Below, in pieces: positions 8,832 through 17,198 of a stretch of DNA of 64,000 bases (positions within the stretch are counted from its first letter, which is position 1; every line of letters starts with the position of its first letter). Source of the stretch: an uncultured Fibrobacteria bacterium (GTDB lineage: Bacteria; Fibrobacterota; Fibrobacteria; UBA11236). The stretch is from NCBI GenBank assembly GCA_963716395.1, contig OY970309.1, forward strand, positions 1,566,485 through 1,630,484, written 5' to 3'. Position numbers and translations under genes: made by a program. The notes below the pieces were generated by a model that made no database searches, was not told the DNA's origin, and was given only the letters and a program-made list of their open reading frames with translations.

Positions 8832-10193
8832 ATGGAGGCCATGAAACCCCGCGCGCTGGTGGTCGACGACGAAGCTTCGCTGTGCAGTCTGCTCGAGGTG
8901 TTTTTCGAGCGCCGTGGCTTCGAGGTCGATACGGCCCAAAACCGGCGCGAGGTGCAGAACCTGCTCGGCAAGCCCGAGCCCATGCTGGCCATGGTCGACC
9001 TGGCCCTGGGCAAGGATTCGGGGCTGGCCGTGCAGCAGGATCTCAACGCCCGCTTCACCGCTTTGCCGGTGGTGGTCATGACCGCATACGGCACGGTGGA
9101 AAAGGCGGTGGAGGCCATCAAACTCGGGGCGTTTGATTTCATCACCAAGCCCTTCGACATGGATTTTCTGGGCAAAGTGGTCGACAAAGCCCTGGCCACC
9201 CGCGCCTTGCAGGGCGAAAACCGGGAATTGCGGGCTTTAATCCACCGGCCTGCGGTGGAACTCATCGGATCGTCGCCGGTTCTGGCCACGCTGCGCACGC
9301 GCATCGAGGCCGCGGCCCCGTCCGACAGCACCGTGCTCATCACCGGCGAAAGCGGCACCGGCAAAGAGCTGGTGGCCAAGCTCATCCACCAGAAATCGCG
9401 CCGCGTGGGCAAACCCTTCGTGGTCGTGAATTGCTCGGCGTTGTCCGAAAACCTGCTCGAGTCGGAGCTGTTTGGGCATGTCAAGGGTGCTTTCACCTCG
9501 GCCCATGCCGACAAAGAAGGCCTGTTTTCGGTGGCGGACGGCGGCTCGGTTTTTCTCGACGAGATCGGCGACATGCCGCTCAAAACCCAGGTCAAGCTAT
9601 TGCGCGTGCTACAGGAGCGCGAGGTGACTCCCGTGGGCGGCACCGCCGCGCAGAAGATCGATGTGCGCGTGCTGGCCGCCACCAATGTGGATTTGGAACA
9701 GGCCGTGGCCCAGGGCCGTTTCCGCGAAGACCTGTACTACCGGCTCAATGTACTGCGTCTGCAAACGCCGCGGCTGGCCGACCGCCAGGATGACGCCGTG
9801 ATTCTCGCCACGCATTTTCTGAAGAAGAAAACCCGCGACCGCAAACGCTTTTCCCCCCAGGTGCTGGCCGAGATCAAAGCCTATTCCTGGCCGGGAAACG
9901 TGCGACAGTTGGAGAATGCCGTGGAACGCGCCATCGCCTTCGCACCCGACGAAGTCATCGAAACCCTGGATTTGGATGCACCGCGCGAAGCGCCCGAGAA
10001 GTCCGGGGAGGGCGAACCGGCCCTCGAGGCCGCGGCATTTCCGCCCTCGCTGGTCGAGGTCGAGAAAGCCTACATCCAATGGATTCTGATGCAGCACCAA
10101 TGGCAGAAACCCAAGGCCGCAAAGGTTCTGGGCTTGGATATTTCCACCCTTTATCGGAAAATCGAACGATACGGGTTGAAGCAAAACCCGTGA
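8832..10193 (+). CDS. Sigma-54-dependent response regulator (NtrC/Fis family): receiver + AAA+ + HTH
   Basis: Receiver domain (ALVVDDE...MVDLALGKDSG). Sigma-54 interaction domain ([11 protein letters not shown]; ESELFGHVKGAFT). C-terminal Fis-type HTH. Confidence 0.9.
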   Translation: MEAMKPRALVVDDEASLCSLLEVFFERRGFEVDTAQNRREVQNLLGKPEPMLAMVDLALGKDSGLAVQQDLNARFTALPVVVMTAYGTVEKAVEAIKLGAFDFITKPFDMDFLGKVVDKALATRALQGENRELRALIHRPAVELIGSSPVLATLRTRIEAAAPSDSTVLITGESGTGKELVAKLIHQKSRRVGKPFVVVNCSALSENLLESELFGHVKGAFTSAHADKEGLFSVADGGSVFLDEIGDMPLKTQVKLLRVLQEREVTPVGGTAAQKIDVRVLAATNVDLEQAVAQGRFREDLYYRLNVLRLQTPRLADRQDDAVILATHFLKKKTRDRKRFSPQVLAEIKAYSWPGNVRQLENAVERAIAFAPDEVIETLDLDAPREAPEKSGEGEPALEAAAFPPSLVEVEKAYIQWILMQHQWQKPKAAKVLGLDISTLYRKIERYGLKQNP

Positions 10194-10219
10194 ATTGTGA
10201 ATACCATTTGGGCTTTTCT

Positions 10220-12418
10220 ATGCCGCATTTCCGCCGCCGTCCGGGTCTTGTCTTCGACCGCACACGCCTTTTCCTCGGCGTGCTGTTGGCGGCGGCCCTT
10301 TGTGCCGGAACGGTTCGTGGCGCCACGTCCGATGCCTTGCTGCAGCAATGGCGCCAAGCCCTGGCGGCCCGGTTTCAGTTCGAAAGCGATCATCCCGCCG
10401 CGGCCGCGCTCTTTTCGGGCCGGCGCGATTTTTCCGGAACCGCGGCGTGGCTGGATTCGCTGCGCGGCCCGTTTTGGAATTCGGATTCCACCCTGCGCGG
10501 ATGGAATCTCGTCGCCCAGGCCCTGCTGCTGAACGCCCCACAACCCTCTGCGGCGGATCGCGCCCTCGCGGAACTTTCGCGCCGCTGGGCCGCCTATCCC
10601 GGTTGGTTGTACGAGGCGGCCAAAACCGCCGACCGCGCCGGCGCCGCGCGGCTGGCCGATTCGCTGCGCCTCAATCTGCGCCGGGCTCTCCTGGCGCAAG
10701 GGTACCGGCGTGTGCCGGAATTCGCAGCCGCCAGCCTGTGGACCGGCCTGGAACACATGCGTGTAGGCCGTTATGATCGCGCCCGCGCCGCTTTCGACTT
10801 GGCCGCGGCGTTCGACCCGATTTGCCCGTGGGTTCCCTGGGCCCAGCTCGAAAACTCCATACACGCCTCCGGCCCCTGGCACCTGAATCTGGGGGAGACC
10901 TGGGATTATCTGAGTCAGACCTTTCGGCTGCTGCGTTTTTTCGGCAATCAGTTATTGCTCGCCTACAACGTGCTGCACGCGCTGCGCCTGGGATTTCTGT
11001 ACTTCGGATTTGCCTGCCTGGTGGTTTTGTTCGCGCGCCATTTTTCGCGCCTCGCGCATCCTTGGGCCGAGCGCCTGCCCGGCAACGTCGATTTGCAGGT
11101 ACGCTATGCGGCCATCGCCATGGTGCTCTTGGGTGCAGCCGTGGCCGGCGCCGGCATGGGCATCGCCGCCATGGCGGTGTTCCCCTGGATTTGGCCCCAC
11201 GCCAACCCCGGCGAAAGGCGTCTGATGCGCTGGCTGCTGGCCGGACTGTTTTTACTGCCGGCGGCGCATTGGAGCGAACGCGTTTTGCTGCGGGCTTGGG
11301 ATCCGCAAGATGCCCTGCATGCCTTTCATCTGGCTTCGACGCGCGGCTTTGATCCCGCCGTGCTGCAATTAGCCCGCGAGCAGAAGCCCCGGGATTCTTC
11401 CGACGCGGCGTATCTGGCTTTGGCGCAATCGCTGCAATACAAGAAGCAGGGAAATTACCGGCGCGCCCTGGAAACCGTCGAGGCGGCGCCCGAAAGCACC
11501 ACCGTCCAACCTTTGCTGGAAATTCAAACAGCTGATTTGGCGTTTCTGGGATTCGATTATGCCCGGGCCGAGTCTTTGTTGACGCAAGCCAGTGGTAGGG
11601 CCGGAAACCGCGTCGACCTGTGGTTCAATGCCAGTCAGGCCGCCCTTTTCCAAAACAGTTCGAGCCGCAACAAAGAATATCTCGATCGGGCGGCGTCTGC
11701 CGATGCCACCTTGGTGACGAATTTCCTCAAAGAGAACGACGATTTGTTCGGCTCCAATGTGCCGGCCAACCGGCGGTTGATGGATCCCACGCTCCGCTCC
11801 AGTTCGGTCCTCTACGCGGCGATTTCCAACCGGGGTTGGACGCAACTTTTGACCGCGTCGGTTCCGAGCGGTTTGCTCGTTTTTCCCGGTGGCGTGTGGC
11901 TGGGCCTGTGTCTGGCTGCAAGCGTTCTGGTGTTCGTGCGTGCGCGCCAGAACTTCGTCACCCGGGGCAAGGCGGTCTTCCAATGCAAAATATGCGGAAG
12001 GATTATGTGCCGTACCTGCCGGAAAGGCGTACATTGCGCGCACTGTTTTAAAACCGTATCGGGCGTGGCCGAACCCAAGATGCGGCTGCAATTAATCGAA
12101 CGCCTGCGCCTGCGCAGCCAGTCCTTGACCCTGGTCTTGTTCCGCGCCCTGAATGTGATGGCGCCCGGCAGCGGTTGGCTGTTCCTGGGACGGGCCGATA
12201 CGCATCTTTTGCGCATGCTGTGTGTCTCGATGCTGCTGGCCTGGACGTATCAGGCCCATCACGCCATCCTGGAATATCCGCGCTTCGCGCCGGGCCTCCT
12301 GGTGTCGCTGCCGGGTGTTCTGGTGGTCGCCTATTACGCCGGCACGCTGTGGCGTACCTATCTGTGGCGTAAAGGCGAGTCGCCACCGGTGGCCGCCGAA
12401 ACGGGAGACGGGCTATGA
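10220..12418 (+). CDS. Polytopic membrane protein with helical TPR-like repeats and an embedded Cys-rich zinc-ribbon
   Basis: ATG 10220 gives a signal peptide (MPHFRRRPGLVFDRTRLFLGVLLAAALCAGTVRGA). Several hydrophobic helices. Motif CKICGRIMCRTCRKGVHCAHC (CxxC-x4-CxxC-x5-CxxC) lies between TM segments. No confident family assignment. Confidence 0.6.
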   Translation: MPHFRRRPGLVFDRTRLFLGVLLAAALCAGTVRGATSDALLQQWRQALAARFQFESDHPAAAALFSGRRDFSGTAAWLDSLRGPFWNSDSTLRGWNLVAQALLLNAPQPSAADRALAELSRRWAAYPGWLYEAAKTADRAGAARLADSLRLNLRRALLAQGYRRVPEFAAASLWTGLEHMRVGRYDRARAAFDLAAAFDPICPWVPWAQLENSIHASGPWHLNLGETWDYLSQTFRLLRFFGNQLLLAYNVLHALRLGFLYFGFACLVVLFARHFSRLAHPWAERLPGNVDLQVRYAAIAMVLLGAAVAGAGMGIAAMAVFPWIWPHANPGERRLMRWLLAGLFLLPAAHWSERVLLRAWDPQDALHAFHLASTRGFDPAVLQLAREQKPRDSSDAAYLALAQSLQYKKQGNYRRALETVEAAPESTTVQPLLEIQTADLAFLGFDYARAESLLTQASGRAGNRVDLWFNASQAALFQNSSSRNKEYLDRAASADATLVTNFLKENDDLFGSNVPANRRLMDPTLRSSSVLYAAISNRGWTQLLTASVPSGLLVFPGGVWLGLCLAASVLVFVRARQNFVTRGKAVFQCKICGRIMCRTCRKGVHCAHCFKTVSGVAEPKMRLQLIERLRLRSQSLTLVLFRALNVMAPGSGWLFLGRADTHLLRMLCVSMLLAWTYQAHHAILEYPRFAPGLLVSLPGVLVVAYYAGTLWRTYLWRKGESPPVAAETGDGL

Positions 12419-13497
12419 TCCTTCAAGGCGAACTGCGCGATTTTTCCCTGCCCGACGTGCTGCAACTTTTATGGCAGCAGAAAAAAAGCGGCGCCCTCAC
12501 CGTGACTCAAGCGGGTTCCGAAAAGCGCACGGCGGAAATATTCATCTCGCAGGGAAACATCGTGGGCGTCAGCGTGCAGGGGCGTACACCGGAAAACAAG
12601 ATTCAGGAAATCCTGACCGCTTCCGGCCGGGTGTCGCCGCAGGAAATGGCCGAGCTGGAAACCTTTGCGCGCGACATGGGTCGACCTTTGCTCAGCACGC
12701 TTACGGCCAAGGGGTTGATCCAAGATGCGCAGCGCGAAACGTGGTTTCAAATGGCCGCCGAAGACATGGTGTGCGATTTGTTTGCCTGGAATGACGGACA
12801 ATACGCCTTTTCCACCACCCAGCGCAGCCTGCCGCATGCGCTCGGGACCCTGCGCCTCTCCACCGAGTTCGCTTGCATGGAAGGTATGCGGCGCGTGGAC
12901 GAATGGCCGCATCTCCATGAAGCCCTGACGTCGGATCAAATTGTGTTCCAGGTCACGAGTACGCCGCCCACCGAAGCCTTGGGCGAATGGGAGGCGTTCA
13001 CCTTGGAAGTGGTGAATGGTCGGCGCTCTTTGGCGGAAATCGGGCGCCTGGTCCCTTTCGGCGCTTTCCGGCTTTACGAGTGCATCCTAAATTTGTGGAA
13101 ATCGGGTTGCATCGAACCGACCGGAAGCGTCTCGGCTCAGCCGGCCGAGGCGCTGCCGATCGTGCAACAATCCGATCGGGATCAAAAAACGGCGCTGGTG
13201 CTGGGTTTGGCCGCGGTCTTTCTCCTGTTTATGCTTTTACTGCGGGGTGTGGGGATGTGGGTCGAATTGCAGGGCAACATTCCTCTGCGCCGGGTGGAAA
13301 CGCGTGTGCGCGCCGACTTCGCGCGGCGTAATGCGGAGGTTTTCGTGCTGCAAGACGCCTCTGCAAGGGGGGCGTACCCTCCCGACCTCGACGCCTTGGT
13401 GCGTGCGGGAATGCTGTCGGTGCCCGAAGCCGACGGCCCGGCCGGAGCGCGTTTGCTTTACCACCGTAACGGTGCCCTGGATTTTGTACTGGAATAG
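12415..13497 (+). CDS. DUF4388 domain protein with C-terminal TM segment
   Basis: N-terminus GELRDFSLPDVLQLLWQQKKSGALTV matches the DUF4388 signature (G.L.dfsL.DlLQLL....ktG.L). Hydrophobic segment ALVLGLAAVFLLFMLLL. ATGA overlap with the upstream gene. Confidence 0.65.
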   Translation: MILQGELRDFSLPDVLQLLWQQKKSGALTVTQAGSEKRTAEIFISQGNIVGVSVQGRTPENKIQEILTASGRVSPQEMAELETFARDMGRPLLSTLTAKGLIQDAQRETWFQMAAEDMVCDLFAWNDGQYAFSTTQRSLPHALGTLRLSTEFACMEGMRRVDEWPHLHEALTSDQIVFQVTSTPPTEALGEWEAFTLEVVNGRRSLAEIGRLVPFGAFRLYECILNLWKSGCIEPTGSVSAQPAEALPIVQQSDRDQKTALVLGLAAVFLLFMLLLRGVGMWVELQGNIPLRRVETRVRADFARRNAEVFVLQDASARGAYPPDLDALVRAGMLSVPEADGPAGARLLYHRNGALDFVLE

Positions 13498-13499
13498 CC

Positions 13500-14312
13500 A
13501 TGCCGCTCCTGCTCAAACCCCATCGCGTGGCCTCGCCGGCAGAAATTCTTGAAGCCGATCCCCGTTGCCAGAAATTCGTGCAAAGCTCCACGACGCTGGC
13601 GTATTGCTGTTTACTGATCCGCCGGGGTGACTTGGATTTGGCGCGCCACGTTTGGAAGGTGTTGGCCGAGAACCAAGAGGCCGCTTTCCGCGACGAGTTG
13701 GTGTACTTGCAAGCCTGGATGGACATGAAAGCCCAGGATTTTGCCGCCGCCAAGGCCGCACTCCTGGGCCGCCTGGAAGCCCTGCCGGGCGATATGGCCG
13801 CACTTTCCCTCTTGCAGGCCTGTCTGGTGCTGGAACTGGATGAGAAAGCCCGCGGGTCCGCCAAATCCTACGCGTCTACCAAACCCGCTCCGGTCTTTAC
13901 GTCGCCCTCCGCTCAGGGCGCCATTTCGACACCACCCGGCGCGACGGAAGCGCCGCCCTCCGAAAACAACCCCTATCAAACGGTGCTCTCCGATCCGCAA
14001 ACCCGTGGTCTGGCGTTGTGGTCGGCCGGCGGCGAAGTCGAAAACTTAGGATCGGGCGAAGGGGAAGCGCTCGCCGCTGCGTTACCCGAATTGTTTCCAG
14101 CCTGGTTGGCCGAGGCGGTGGGAAACCTGGAAGGCGGAGAGGCGGTAAAAATCTGCTTCGCCTTTGAACACTGCACCGTCACCACATGGCATGGTGGCGG
14201 TCGGAACGCCGGACTGGTAACCGGGCCCTTGCGGCAATCGTTGCTCACCCTGGCCCGCGCCGAAAAAATTTTCCGCGCGTCCCCGCAGCCTCCGGTCCCG
14301 GAGGTCGCATGA
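13500..14312 (+). CDS. Hypothetical protein (helical N-domain, Pro/Ala-rich linker, small C-domain)
   Basis: 270-aa ORF in operon context. Stop overlaps the next start as ATGA. No recognisable motif. Confidence 0.5.
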   Translation: MPLLLKPHRVASPAEILEADPRCQKFVQSSTTLAYCCLLIRRGDLDLARHVWKVLAENQEAAFRDELVYLQAWMDMKAQDFAAAKAALLGRLEALPGDMAALSLLQACLVLELDEKARGSAKSYASTKPAPVFTSPSAQGAISTPPGATEAPPSENNPYQTVLSDPQTRGLALWSAGGEVENLGSGEGEALAAALPELFPAWLAEAVGNLEGGEAVKICFAFEHCTVTTWHGGGRNAGLVTGPLRQSLLTLARAEKIFRASPQPPVPEVA

Positions 14313-14734
14313 GCGCGGCCCGCACGGCGGCCGAAGTGAATCGCCTTTTGGAAGCGGCCGAGCCCTCCGCCTGTCTCGGATATCTCAGTTTGGTGAACGG
14401 CATCGACGGCGCGGTGTTATTCGACCATCAGGGTTGGGCCATGGCCACGGGCGAAGAAACCACCGAAAACCTGCTTCTCGAAGCGCCGTATTTTCTTTTT
14501 CATTTCCAGGAAGTGCTCCGGAATTTTCAGGAGTTGGGACTCGAGCCGCTGGAGTCCCAAGTCGCGTTTGGCGGCGCGAAATTTTATCTCGTCCTCAATT
14601 TGGAGCGGGAAAGCCGGTTTTTTTTAGTAGTTTCCGGCGCGCGGGGAAGTTACGATCTCTTCAAATACCGGGTGGACCGCGGAGCCCAGGCCATCGTGGG
14701 CCTGCTTCACGGTCGCGGCTATTTCCGGAGTTGA
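14309..14734 (+). CDS. Roadblock/LC7 domain protein (MglB-like), paralogue 1
   Basis: ATG 14309 with GGAGG 4 nt upstream. Pattern LVNGIDGAVLFDHQGWAMATGEE...FYLVLNLERESRFFLVVSGARGSYDLFKY is typical of the Roadblock/LC7 fold. Confidence 0.7.
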   Translation: MSAARTAAEVNRLLEAAEPSACLGYLSLVNGIDGAVLFDHQGWAMATGEETTENLLLEAPYFLFHFQEVLRNFQELGLEPLESQVAFGGAKFYLVLNLERESRFFLVVSGARGSYDLFKYRVDRGAQAIVGLLHGRGYFRS

Positions 14735-14738
14735 ACCC

Positions 14739-15071
14739 ATGCAAGCGGTCTTGGAGCGAATCAACCGGATCAAAGGCGTTAAGGGTTCCAGCATCGTGGG
14801 ATCCGACGGAATCGAAATCGTCTCGGCCTTCCGGGCCCCGGTCCCCTCCGAATTCATCAGCGCCTTGATCGTTTCGATTCAGCAAGCGGCGGCCAAAATC
14901 GTGGCGGCCGCAGAGACCGGCTCTTTGCTGCAAACCATGATTGAAGCGACCGAAGGAAAATTTTTTGTCCAAGTGGTAGGATTGGGATATCTTGTGGTCT
15001 TGGCCGACAGCCAAGCCAACGCGGGATTAATCCGAGTAGAAATAACCCAAGTCAGCCCCTTGATCAAATAA
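14739..15071 (+). CDS. mglB: Roadblock/LC7 domain protein (MglB-like), paralogue 2
   Basis: 110 aa: GVKGSSIVGSDGIEIVSAF...EGKFFVQVVGLGYLVVLADSQANAGLI is a canonical Roadblock pattern. Immediately upstream of the MglA gene, as in characterised mglBA operons. Confidence 0.8.
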   Translation: MQAVLERINRIKGVKGSSIVGSDGIEIVSAFRAPVPSEFISALIVSIQQAAAKIVAAAETGSLLQTMIEATEGKFFVQVVGLGYLVVLADSQANAGLIRVEITQVSPLIK

Positions 15072-15086
15072 GCAGAGGACGATCCT

Positions 15087-16655
15087 GTGGCATCCATCAA
15101 TTACGCAACCCGAGAAATCAGTTGCAAGATCGTGTATTACGGTCCGGGACTGAGCGGCAAAACCACCAATCTGCAAATCATCCACCGCAAAATTCCCGAC
15201 AAGGACAAAAGCGAAATGGTTTCGCTGGCCACTGAAACCGACCGCACCTTGTTTTTCGACTTCCTGCCGCTGGATCTGGGATCGATCAAGGGCTTTTCCA
15301 CCAAGTTCCAGCTTTATACCGTGCCGGGCCAGGTTTACTACAACGCCACCCGCAAGCTGGTGCTGCGCGGCGTCGACGGCGTGGTGTTCGTGGTCGACTC
15401 GCAGACCGACAAGATTCAGGAGAACGTGGAAAGCTTCACCAATCTGCAGGAGAACCTGCGCGAGTACGGGCATGCCATCGAGGCGATTCCACTGGTGCTG
15501 CAATACAACAAGCGCGACCTGCCCAACGTCTATCCGGTGCAGCAATTGAACGACCTGTTCAACAAATGGAACCTCCCCTATTGCGAAGCGGTGGCGGCCA
15601 CCGGGGTTGGCGTGTTCACCACTCTCAAGGCCATCGGCAAATTGGTGATCGACCGCTTCAACGCCAAGTACGCGGGTTTTCAAGGCGCCGGTCGCCGCAT
15701 GCAGCCGGGCCAACGCATGCAGCCTCCGCCGACTTCTCCCGCTCCTTCACCGTCTCGCGGCGATATGCGTCCCTTGCCCACTTCGCCTTTCGGCAGTCCC
15801 ACCGGAATGCCGGGAGGGCCGCGAACCCCGGCTCAGGGGCCCGCCGGTTTTGCTCCGCCGCCGCGCGAAAACCCCTTCGCATCGGCGCCGCCTTCTTTTT
15901 CGCCGGGGGCCCCGGGACCCGGGCACCCGCCGTTCATGATTCCGACACCTTTCCAAACACCTCCGGGAAACGCGCCTTCTCCTGCCGGGGGATTCGCTCC
16001 GCCGCCTCCGCCCGCCCCCAATTATCCGGGCGGCGGTTTTGCCGCCGGCCCGGCACCGTACCCGGGATCCAATGCACCGTTTCCGCCCCCGGGAAATATG
16101 CCCCCGCCGGGCGGATCGCCCGCCCCCGGAGGCATGCCTTCGCGGCCGGGCTTTCCCTCCGCTCCGGGCCCGAGTCCCGGACAGGGTAACATACCGGTTT
16201 CTCCTTTCCTGGATTCGTTCGCCGGTCCCCGGCCGGCCGCCCCGCTGGGCAATCCCGGACCGATTCCGGGATTGCAAACCAGCAACCCGTTCGCGGGGCA
16301 ACGTCCGCCGCCTCCGCCGTTTCCGGCATTCGGCGGCGCGCCACAACCGCAACAGCCGCCACCGCCCCCGTATCCGGGTGGCCCCTTTGCCCCGGGCAAC
16401 ATGCCGTCCATGGGCGGCCCCACCCCTTTCCCCGCACCCAACACACCTTTTCCTCCGACGCGGCCCAACGAACCCGAAGTCGCGCCGCCTCCGCCCCCGC
16501 CCGGGGGGCTGCGCAACAGCTTCGACGACGCCAGCGGTATCGTGTCGACTTATGAAGACGTGCAGCGCAACGAGAATTTCAAAACCAAAAAACTGCCGTT
16601 GCCGGGAGAAAAGAAAAAGGGTTTGTTCGACGGTTTTTTCCGCAAGGACAAATAG
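15087..16655 (+). CDS. mglA: MglA-family Ras-like GTPase fused to ~325-aa Pro/Gly/Ala-rich low-complexity tail with conserved-looking charged C-terminus
   Basis: Residues 1-195 align closely with Myxococcus MglA. P-loop GPGLSGKTT. Switch I TETDRTLFFDF (intrinsic Arg). Switch II TVPGQVYYNATRK. QYNKRDLPN. TGVGVFTTLKA. The reading frame then continues uninterrupted through a Pro-rich region to ...STYEDVQRNENFKTKKLPLPGEKKKGLFDGFFRKDK. Stop 16655, 3 nt before the next start. Confidence 0.85.
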   Translation: MASINYATREISCKIVYYGPGLSGKTTNLQIIHRKIPDKDKSEMVSLATETDRTLFFDFLPLDLGSIKGFSTKFQLYTVPGQVYYNATRKLVLRGVDGVVFVVDSQTDKIQENVESFTNLQENLREYGHAIEAIPLVLQYNKRDLPNVYPVQQLNDLFNKWNLPYCEAVAATGVGVFTTLKAIGKLVIDRFNAKYAGFQGAGRRMQPGQRMQPPPTSPAPSPSRGDMRPLPTSPFGSPTGMPGGPRTPAQGPAGFAPPPRENPFASAPPSFSPGAPGPGHPPFMIPTPFQTPPGNAPSPAGGFAPPPPPAPNYPGGGFAAGPAPYPGSNAPFPPPGNMPPPGGSPAPGGMPSRPGFPSAPGPSPGQGNIPVSPFLDSFAGPRPAAPLGNPGPIPGLQTSNPFAGQRPPPPPFPAFGGAPQPQQPPPPPYPGGPFAPGNMPSMGGPTPFPAPNTPFPPTRPNEPEVAPPPPPPGGLRNSFDDASGIVSTYEDVQRNENFKTKKLPLPGEKKKGLFDGFFRKDK

Positions 16656-16658
16656 CCC

Positions 16659-17144
16659 ATGGGTGATTTCGTCCTCTTCAAAGAGGATGTGGAGCGGATT
16701 CAGAAAATCCTTTCGCATCTGCTGACGGAATCCGCCGCCACCTACGTGCTTTTGATCAACAAAGACGGCAACCTCATCGCCAACGTGGGATTCAGTTCCT
16801 CCATCGACGCGAACAGCCTGGCCGCGCTGGCGGCGGGCAGCTTCGCCTCGACCCGCGCCATTGCGGCGTTGGTGGGGGAAACCGAATTCACCGTGCTGTT
16901 CCATCAAGGCGCGAAAGAGAACATCCACATCTCGCTGGTCGACGAAGACGGAATTCTGGTGCTGATTTTCGACGACCGCACCAATCTCGGCATGGTGAAA
17001 ATGGTGGCCGAGCAGGCACGCCGCAAATTGTCCGAAGTGCTGGACGACGTGCGGGCGAACGAAGTCGACGCGTTGCCTCCGGTGCCCGACGCGGAAAACG
17101 ATGTGGCGGATCGCATCGATTCCCTTTTTCCACCCGGCCCCTGA
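16659..17144 (+). CDS. Roadblock/LC7 domain protein (MglB/MglC-like), paralogue 3, with acidic C-terminal tail
   Basis: ATYVLLINKDGNLIANVGFSSSIDANSLAALAAGSFASTRAIAALVGE...EDGILVLIFDDRTN matches the Roadblock pattern. C-terminal ~40 aa are acidic. Confidence 0.75.
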   Translation: MGDFVLFKEDVERIQKILSHLLTESAATYVLLINKDGNLIANVGFSSSIDANSLAALAAGSFASTRAIAALVGETEFTVLFHQGAKENIHISLVDEDGILVLIFDDRTNLGMVKMVAEQARRKLSEVLDDVRANEVDALPPVPDAENDVADRIDSLFPPGP

Positions 17145-17198
17145 CCCGTTCCGGGGGCGGCGAGTCCGCCGCTTTTCCTTTTCTCCAAGTGCGGGCGC

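Follow-up and report, generated by a model that had tools for sequence, protein, structure and literature searches.

Loci in which one MglA GTPase is coupled to two MglBs, and mglA loci linked to PATAN genes, are reportedly treated by Makarova et al. in 2006 as well as in a later survey. The latter (Wuichet and Sogaard-Andersen 2014, PMC4316618) catalogued both arrangements, with PATAN genes near mglA/mglB beside Group 1 and Group 5 mglA, and found that only one of two MglBs co-evolves with MglA. In Myxococcus, the RomR/MglC/MglB polarity complex contains two Roadblock proteins, and its stacked Roadblock dimers are regulated by MglA-GTP (PMC10329633). An earlier note on the DNA analyzed here had called its gene arrangement uncharacterized. 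These precedents narrow that claim; the survey, for its part, mentions neither a system with as many as three Roadblock genes nor two membrane proteins of the kind found here nor a TPR/unknown-domain protein. The operon is thus a variation on the known MglA/MglB switch and not a new kind of system.

We analyzed a 64,000-nucleotide window from an uncultured Fibrobacteria bacterium known solely from assemblies. By our reading of the sequence, eight plus-strand genes form one unit (8832–17144). The first encodes an NtrC-type sigma-54 response regulator (8832–10193), in which Pfam recognizes a receiver (Response_reg, 6.5e-22), an AAA+ domain (Sigma54_activat, 3.8e-71), and a Fis-type HTH (HTH_8, 4e-11). 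After 26 nt comes the gene for a 732-aa polytopic TPR/zinc-ribbon membrane protein (10220–12418), with its start set at the ATG at 10220; an ATG at 10079 would give a 115-nt overlap with the regulator gene. Genes for a PATAN (DUF4388) protein (12415–13497), a 270-aa two-domain protein (ORF3, 13500–14312), a 141-aa divergent Roadblock-fold protein (ORF4, 14309–14734), a 110-aa Roadblock/LC7 protein (14739–15071), a 522-aa MglA, and MglB (16659–17144) follow. The two ATGA overlaps that the earlier note had placed at 12415 and 14309 are real: read directly, 12415–12418 joins the stop of the membrane protein gene to the start of the DUF4388 gene, and 14309–14312 does the same for the 270-aa and 141-aa genes. 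The short gaps are equally real and measure 2 nt between the DUF4388 TAG (13495–13497) and the ATG at 13500, 4 nt between the 141-aa TGA (14732–14734) and the ATG at 14739, 15 nt between the 110-aa TAA (15069–15071) and the mglA GTG at 15087, and 3 nt between the mglA TAG (16653–16655) and the mglB ATG at 16659. Because the gene upstream of DUF4388 is tied to it by the ATGA at 12415, the unit proposed as six genes comprises eight, the membrane protein and NtrC-type regulator genes having been omitted. A terminator-like, GC-rich hairpin with a T-rich tail (17153–17186, plus strand; 10-pair stem with six GC pairs, GGGGGCGGCGAGTCCGCCGCTTTT, then CCTTTTCTCC) would close the operon.

The order regulator, TPR membrane protein, PATAN, ORF3, ORF4, Roadblock, long MglA, MglB was found in 19 of 19 genome loci and 9 of 9 metagenome loci, assessed as far as each contig reaches, which supports the expected co-conservation of the module genes. 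Overlaps and short gaps are likewise preserved, the coupling recurring in these 28 related loci. For example, 14 of 15 loci share the membrane protein/PATAN overlap of −4, and the gap between the regulator and membrane protein genes is −4 to 19 nt in most. ORF3, with its 2-nt gap and ATGA overlap and its constant position across loci, belongs to the unit as the earlier note held. Across related loci, identity is highest for the MglA G domain (first ~200 aa; 87–95% in most, 77–80% in the two most divergent), followed by the 110-aa Roadblock, the most conserved accessory protein of the block (70–84%), MglB (61–81%), ORF4 (43–73%), PATAN (40–56%), and ORF3 (about 29–48%). This gradient is consistent with a core switch whose adaptors evolve faster. 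The regulator is 62–67% identical and always lies directly 5′ of the membrane protein gene. The genes flanking the block in the window differ from those in more distant relatives, which indicates that the block moves as a unit, and conservation of downstream gene order ends at the nearest relative. From these comparisons, the operon appears specific to one lineage of uncultured Fibrobacteria; ORF4 homologues came from Fibrobacteria/Fibrobacterota MAGs, save for one "uncultured Bifidobacteriales" and one "uncultured bacterium" contig.

The MglA G domain (aa 1–193, 15087–15665, GTG start) aligns with M. xanthus MglA over aa 1–191 (phmmer, E = 2.7e-75) and with T. thermophilus MglA (2e-72), and is ~64% identical to the former by hand count on the printed alignment, switch regions included. 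The alignment retains GPGLSGKT, TETDRTLFFDF (Arg53), TVPGQ (Thr78, Gln82), and NKRD, and the mechanistic roles of Arg53 and Gln82 have been described (PMC3199381). By these motifs, the GTPase is an orthodox Group 1 MglA with the intrinsic arginine finger, catalytic glutamine, and TVPGQ motif, much as in the M. xanthus module. The actinobacterial conservon (CvnA–D)/mfp operon likewise encodes an MglA-family GTPase together with a Roadblock protein and partners at the membrane, but its GTPase belongs to Group 2, whereas the one here is of Group 1 and keeps the arginine finger. It is conceivable, though unlikely, that the locus is a signaling module in the style of conservons or Group 3 MglA, in which the membrane proteins would act as sensors, the Roadblocks and MglB would control the nucleotide bound by MglA, and transcription through the NtrC-type sigma-54 regulator, instead of polarity, would be the output. 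MglA-family GTPases are indeed tied to kinase-like sensors (conservons) or receiver/wHTH-like proteins (Group 3; PMC4316618), and the first conserved gene of the block encodes this regulator, whose receiver is intact and for which the block supplies no partner kinase. Genes for another sigma-54 activator and for a CHASE2 Ser/Thr kinase lie 3′ of the operon both here and in the nearest relative, but they are not conserved past that relative. Neither a CvnA-type histidine-kinase-like sensor nor a CvnC/DUF742 protein was detected with Pfam and NCBIfam, the GTPase is of neither Group 2 nor Group 3 and resembles the Myxococcus polarity GTPase, and sigma-54 promoter matches in the window (37 versus 34 expected) include no conspicuous one within or ahead of the block.

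The most unusual feature of the locus is the ~330-aa C-terminal extension of MglA, which the earlier note had flagged as "MglA*" without describing the tail. An uncharged, low-complexity linker of ~285 aa rich in Pro, Gly, Ala, and Phe (aa ~194–479, 15666–16523) leads to a conserved basic C-terminal block (aa 480–522, 16524–16655 with the stop codon). Over aa 206–470, the linker is 36% Pro, 15% Gly, 7% Phe, and 5% charged, and in relatives its Phe residues lie within GFG, PFG, or GFP contexts. Linker sequence and length vary among loci (about 250–460 aa) while composition is conserved, and a search of the linker DNA returned no significant tandem repeat. The full protein spans 500–719 aa in 13 of 14 complete orthologues, the fourteenth (L019) being called from an internal start. 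Behind the hypervariable linker, the C-terminal block is preserved in 13 of 14 orthologues, and L022 retains only its KKGFWGNLFGK end.

That block ends in EKKKGLFDGFFRKDK (aa 508–522), which includes a short basic PhiPhi-x-x-PhiPhi segment (KKKGLFDGFFRK) like the membrane-targeting helices of MinD and FtsA. The E. coli MinD tail, for comparison, reads KKGFLKRLF. Motif resemblance thus suggests a putative basic amphipathic membrane-targeting helix, although by a hydrophobic-moment test it could not be told apart from shuffled sequence. Of the 150 MglA cluster representatives closest to this protein, a set inflated by divergent tails that split clusters, 149 are 255–717 aa long with an N-terminal G domain and a long tail. 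By simple rules, 45 carry the basic PhiPhi-x-x-PhiPhi motif at the C-terminus, 19 others have a TM-like hydrophobic C-terminal stretch, and 85 match neither membrane class. That two distinct ways of binding the membrane occur at one position speaks for attachment as the selected function, and the long flexible tail probably ties the GTPase to the membrane. Ras, Rho, and Rab also place a variable flexible region between G domain and membrane anchor (putative in the present case), but the MglA linker is far longer, uncharged, and Phe-studded, and MglA lacks the lipid modification motif of the Ras-type anchors. Such tails fell outside the analysis of Wuichet and Sogaard-Andersen (2014), which left out GTPases above 240 aa (PMC4316618). 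The same work gives a length of 313 aa for Fibrobacter succinogenes Fisuc_0226, a Group 1 protein encoded in an mglA-mglB pair; an extended MglA had thus been recorded in the phylum before.

The earlier note had also proposed that a single MglA is flanked by three Roadblock proteins, and this holds, two being recognized by Pfam and ORF4 by AlphaFold2 and Foldseek. The product of 16659–17144 matches M. xanthus MglB over aa 4–160 (phmmer, E = 3.2e-26), with IDSLFPPG aligned to IDNLFSEG, as well as the NCBIfam MglB model (4e-23) and Pfam Robl_LC7 (2e-12), so that the Roadblock assignment put up for testing in the note stands. Its Ala63 and Ala67 occupy the aligned positions of M. xanthus MglB Ala64 and Gly68, and we take them to correspond to the A68/A72 interface patch of T. 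thermophilus MglB. An A68/72R mutant of the latter is documented (PMC3199381). With this small-residue α2 patch and a D/E-rich, acidic C-terminal helix, a region linked to nucleotide exchange in MglB (PMC6785124), the protein is by sequence an orthodox MglB. The 110-aa protein matches Robl_LC7 (3.1e-8), and its best PDB sequence matches are the Asgard Roadblocks 7yh1 (2e-6) and 7f8m (1e-5); MglC (7ct3) appeared in this search only at E = 1, no specific similarity. For ORF4, the Roadblock call was borne out by structure prediction and not by a Pfam match of its own: the window protein hit neither Pfam nor NCBIfam, but weak matches appear across its family (MAPKK1_Int in 13 of 21 members, best 3e-6; Robl_LC7 in 9 of 21). 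AlphaFold2 with a 21-sequence alignment gave a high-scoring model (pLDDT 90.6, pTM 0.85) for which Foldseek returned M. xanthus MglB as best (6hjm, 6izw; TM 0.67–0.79, probability 1.00), then LAMTOR2/3 and Asgard Roadblocks. ORF4 is thus confidently predicted to adopt the Roadblock fold.

ORF4 and the 110-aa protein are Roadblock-fold proteins, neither MglB nor recognizable MglC. The locus resembles the known 1:2 MglA:MglB systems in coupling one MglA with two or more Roadblock genes, only one of which resembles the co-evolving MglB. That precedent, and the undetectable pairwise sequence similarity of the three Roadblock proteins, would suit an ordinary mglAB locus amid unrelated neighbors, with the extra Roadblocks being diverged mglB duplicates that act as redundant or degenerate GAPs. 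We regard this as highly improbable. Decaying duplicates fit poorly, since the 110-aa Roadblock is more conserved than MglB and ORF4 occurs in every locus, and the order and overlapping or near-abutting junctions of all eight genes are held in 28 loci while the flanks differ.

The remaining members of the unit include two membrane proteins. As the earlier note had stated, the DUF4388 protein (Pfam, 2e-27, aa 4–164) has a TM anchor: a single hydrophobic segment peaks at aa 261–279 (Kyte-Doolittle, 2.57) within a helix at aa ~258–283, followed by a ~75-aa C-terminal segment. A PATAN gene nearby is a trait shared with Group 1/5 MglA loci. The 732-aa protein has hydrophobic segments at aa ~10–28, 254–272, 292–320, 548–576, and 689–707, weak, sub-threshold Pfam matches to TPR_2 and TPR_16, and a CxxC-x4-CxxC-x5-CxxC motif (aa 589–609) present in 14 of 14 orthologues. 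In ORF3, a variable linker of low complexity separates a TPR-like helical N-domain (aa ~10–121) from a C-domain (aa ~155–262) that is conserved and has the element order β-β-α-β-β-β-α. The C-domain model has Roadblock topology, with Roadblock and LAMTOR4/5 chains as the best Foldseek matches (pLDDT 35–54); sequence support for a Roadblock assignment was sought and none was found, and the domain may be Roadblock-like.

These features invite comparison with Rag-Ragulator, in which a membrane anchor and several Roadblock-fold subunits jointly place a small GTPase on a membrane, as they putatively would here; the MglB/MglC parallel to it has been drawn before (PMC10329633). Quite unlikely in our estimation is a Ragulator-like platform in which four Roadblock-type domains (ORF3 C-domain, ORF4, 110-aa protein, MglB), layered as hetero- and homodimers and membrane-anchored, recruit the tethered GTPase to one particular site of the envelope for a non-motility output, for instance secretion, adhesion, or growth of the envelope. 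The closest Pfam model to the ORF4 family is MP1/LAMTOR3, and LAMTOR3 is among the best PDB sequence matches of its profile (E ~0.3). After MglB itself, MglB next matches LAMTOR2 in the PDB (E 0.13–0.2), and the Roadblock genes share translational coupling with two genes for membrane proteins. The similarity, however, extends only to the fold and to weak profile matches, as expected between any divergent Roadblock pair; the heterodimers are hypothetical here, and the fourth domain is the low-pLDDT C-domain of ORF3. Unlike Rag GTPases, the MglA-type GTPase lacks its own Roadblock domain, no LAMTOR1-like wrapping protein was seen in the block, and evidence for a non-motility output was nil.

We return to the MglA/MglB switch. 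As in M. xanthus, a single MglA is served by more than one Roadblock protein, and MglB shares the fold, small-residue interface patch, and acidic Ct-helix; of the "KRK" MglC-binding patch of M. xanthus MglB (PMC10329633), two of three basic positions are present (R13 and K114), with Q119 replacing K120. Here, however, a single operon with translational coupling holds all parts, with mglA ahead of mglB, two and possibly three extra Roadblock domains, none a recognizable MglC, take the place of one MglC, MglA bears the long tail with its putative anchor, the operon includes a PATAN membrane protein as well as the polytopic TPR/zinc-ribbon protein, and RomR, RomX, and RomY are absent from the gene assignments. 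The combined GAP/GEF/adaptor set once suggested can be assigned in part: the 16659–17144 product as MglB (GAP), with other roles being speculation.

In the mechanism we propose, MglA would cycle between GTP and GDP states, with the MglB dimer as its GAP and the MglB Ct-helix aiding nucleotide exchange, while the basic amphipathic helix on its disordered ~285-aa tether would hold MglA at the cytoplasmic face of the inner membrane. The two extra Roadblocks would form at least one further dimer, possibly a heterodimer and possibly with the ORF3 C-domain. Stacked on MglB in the manner of Myxococcus MglC, such a dimer could connect the switch to the PATAN and TPR/zinc-ribbon membrane proteins. PATAN domains of other systems are reported to interact with the pilus motor PilB (bioRxiv 10.1101/2021.06.11.447907). 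The window also encodes flagellar genes and type IV pilus genes (pilM, pilN, a secretin, a PilZ protein); the pilus genes lie ~35 kb from the operon, and a link between them would be by analogy only. The NtrC-type regulator encoded first would be compatible with a transcriptional output as well. A polarity or motility role is what we infer, the output most likely being spatial control of surface or motility machinery. We consider it reasonably probable that this lineage of uncultured Fibrobacteria carries its own eight-gene operon for a membrane-associated MglA/MglB small-GTPase switch, which would most likely serve surface or motility control.

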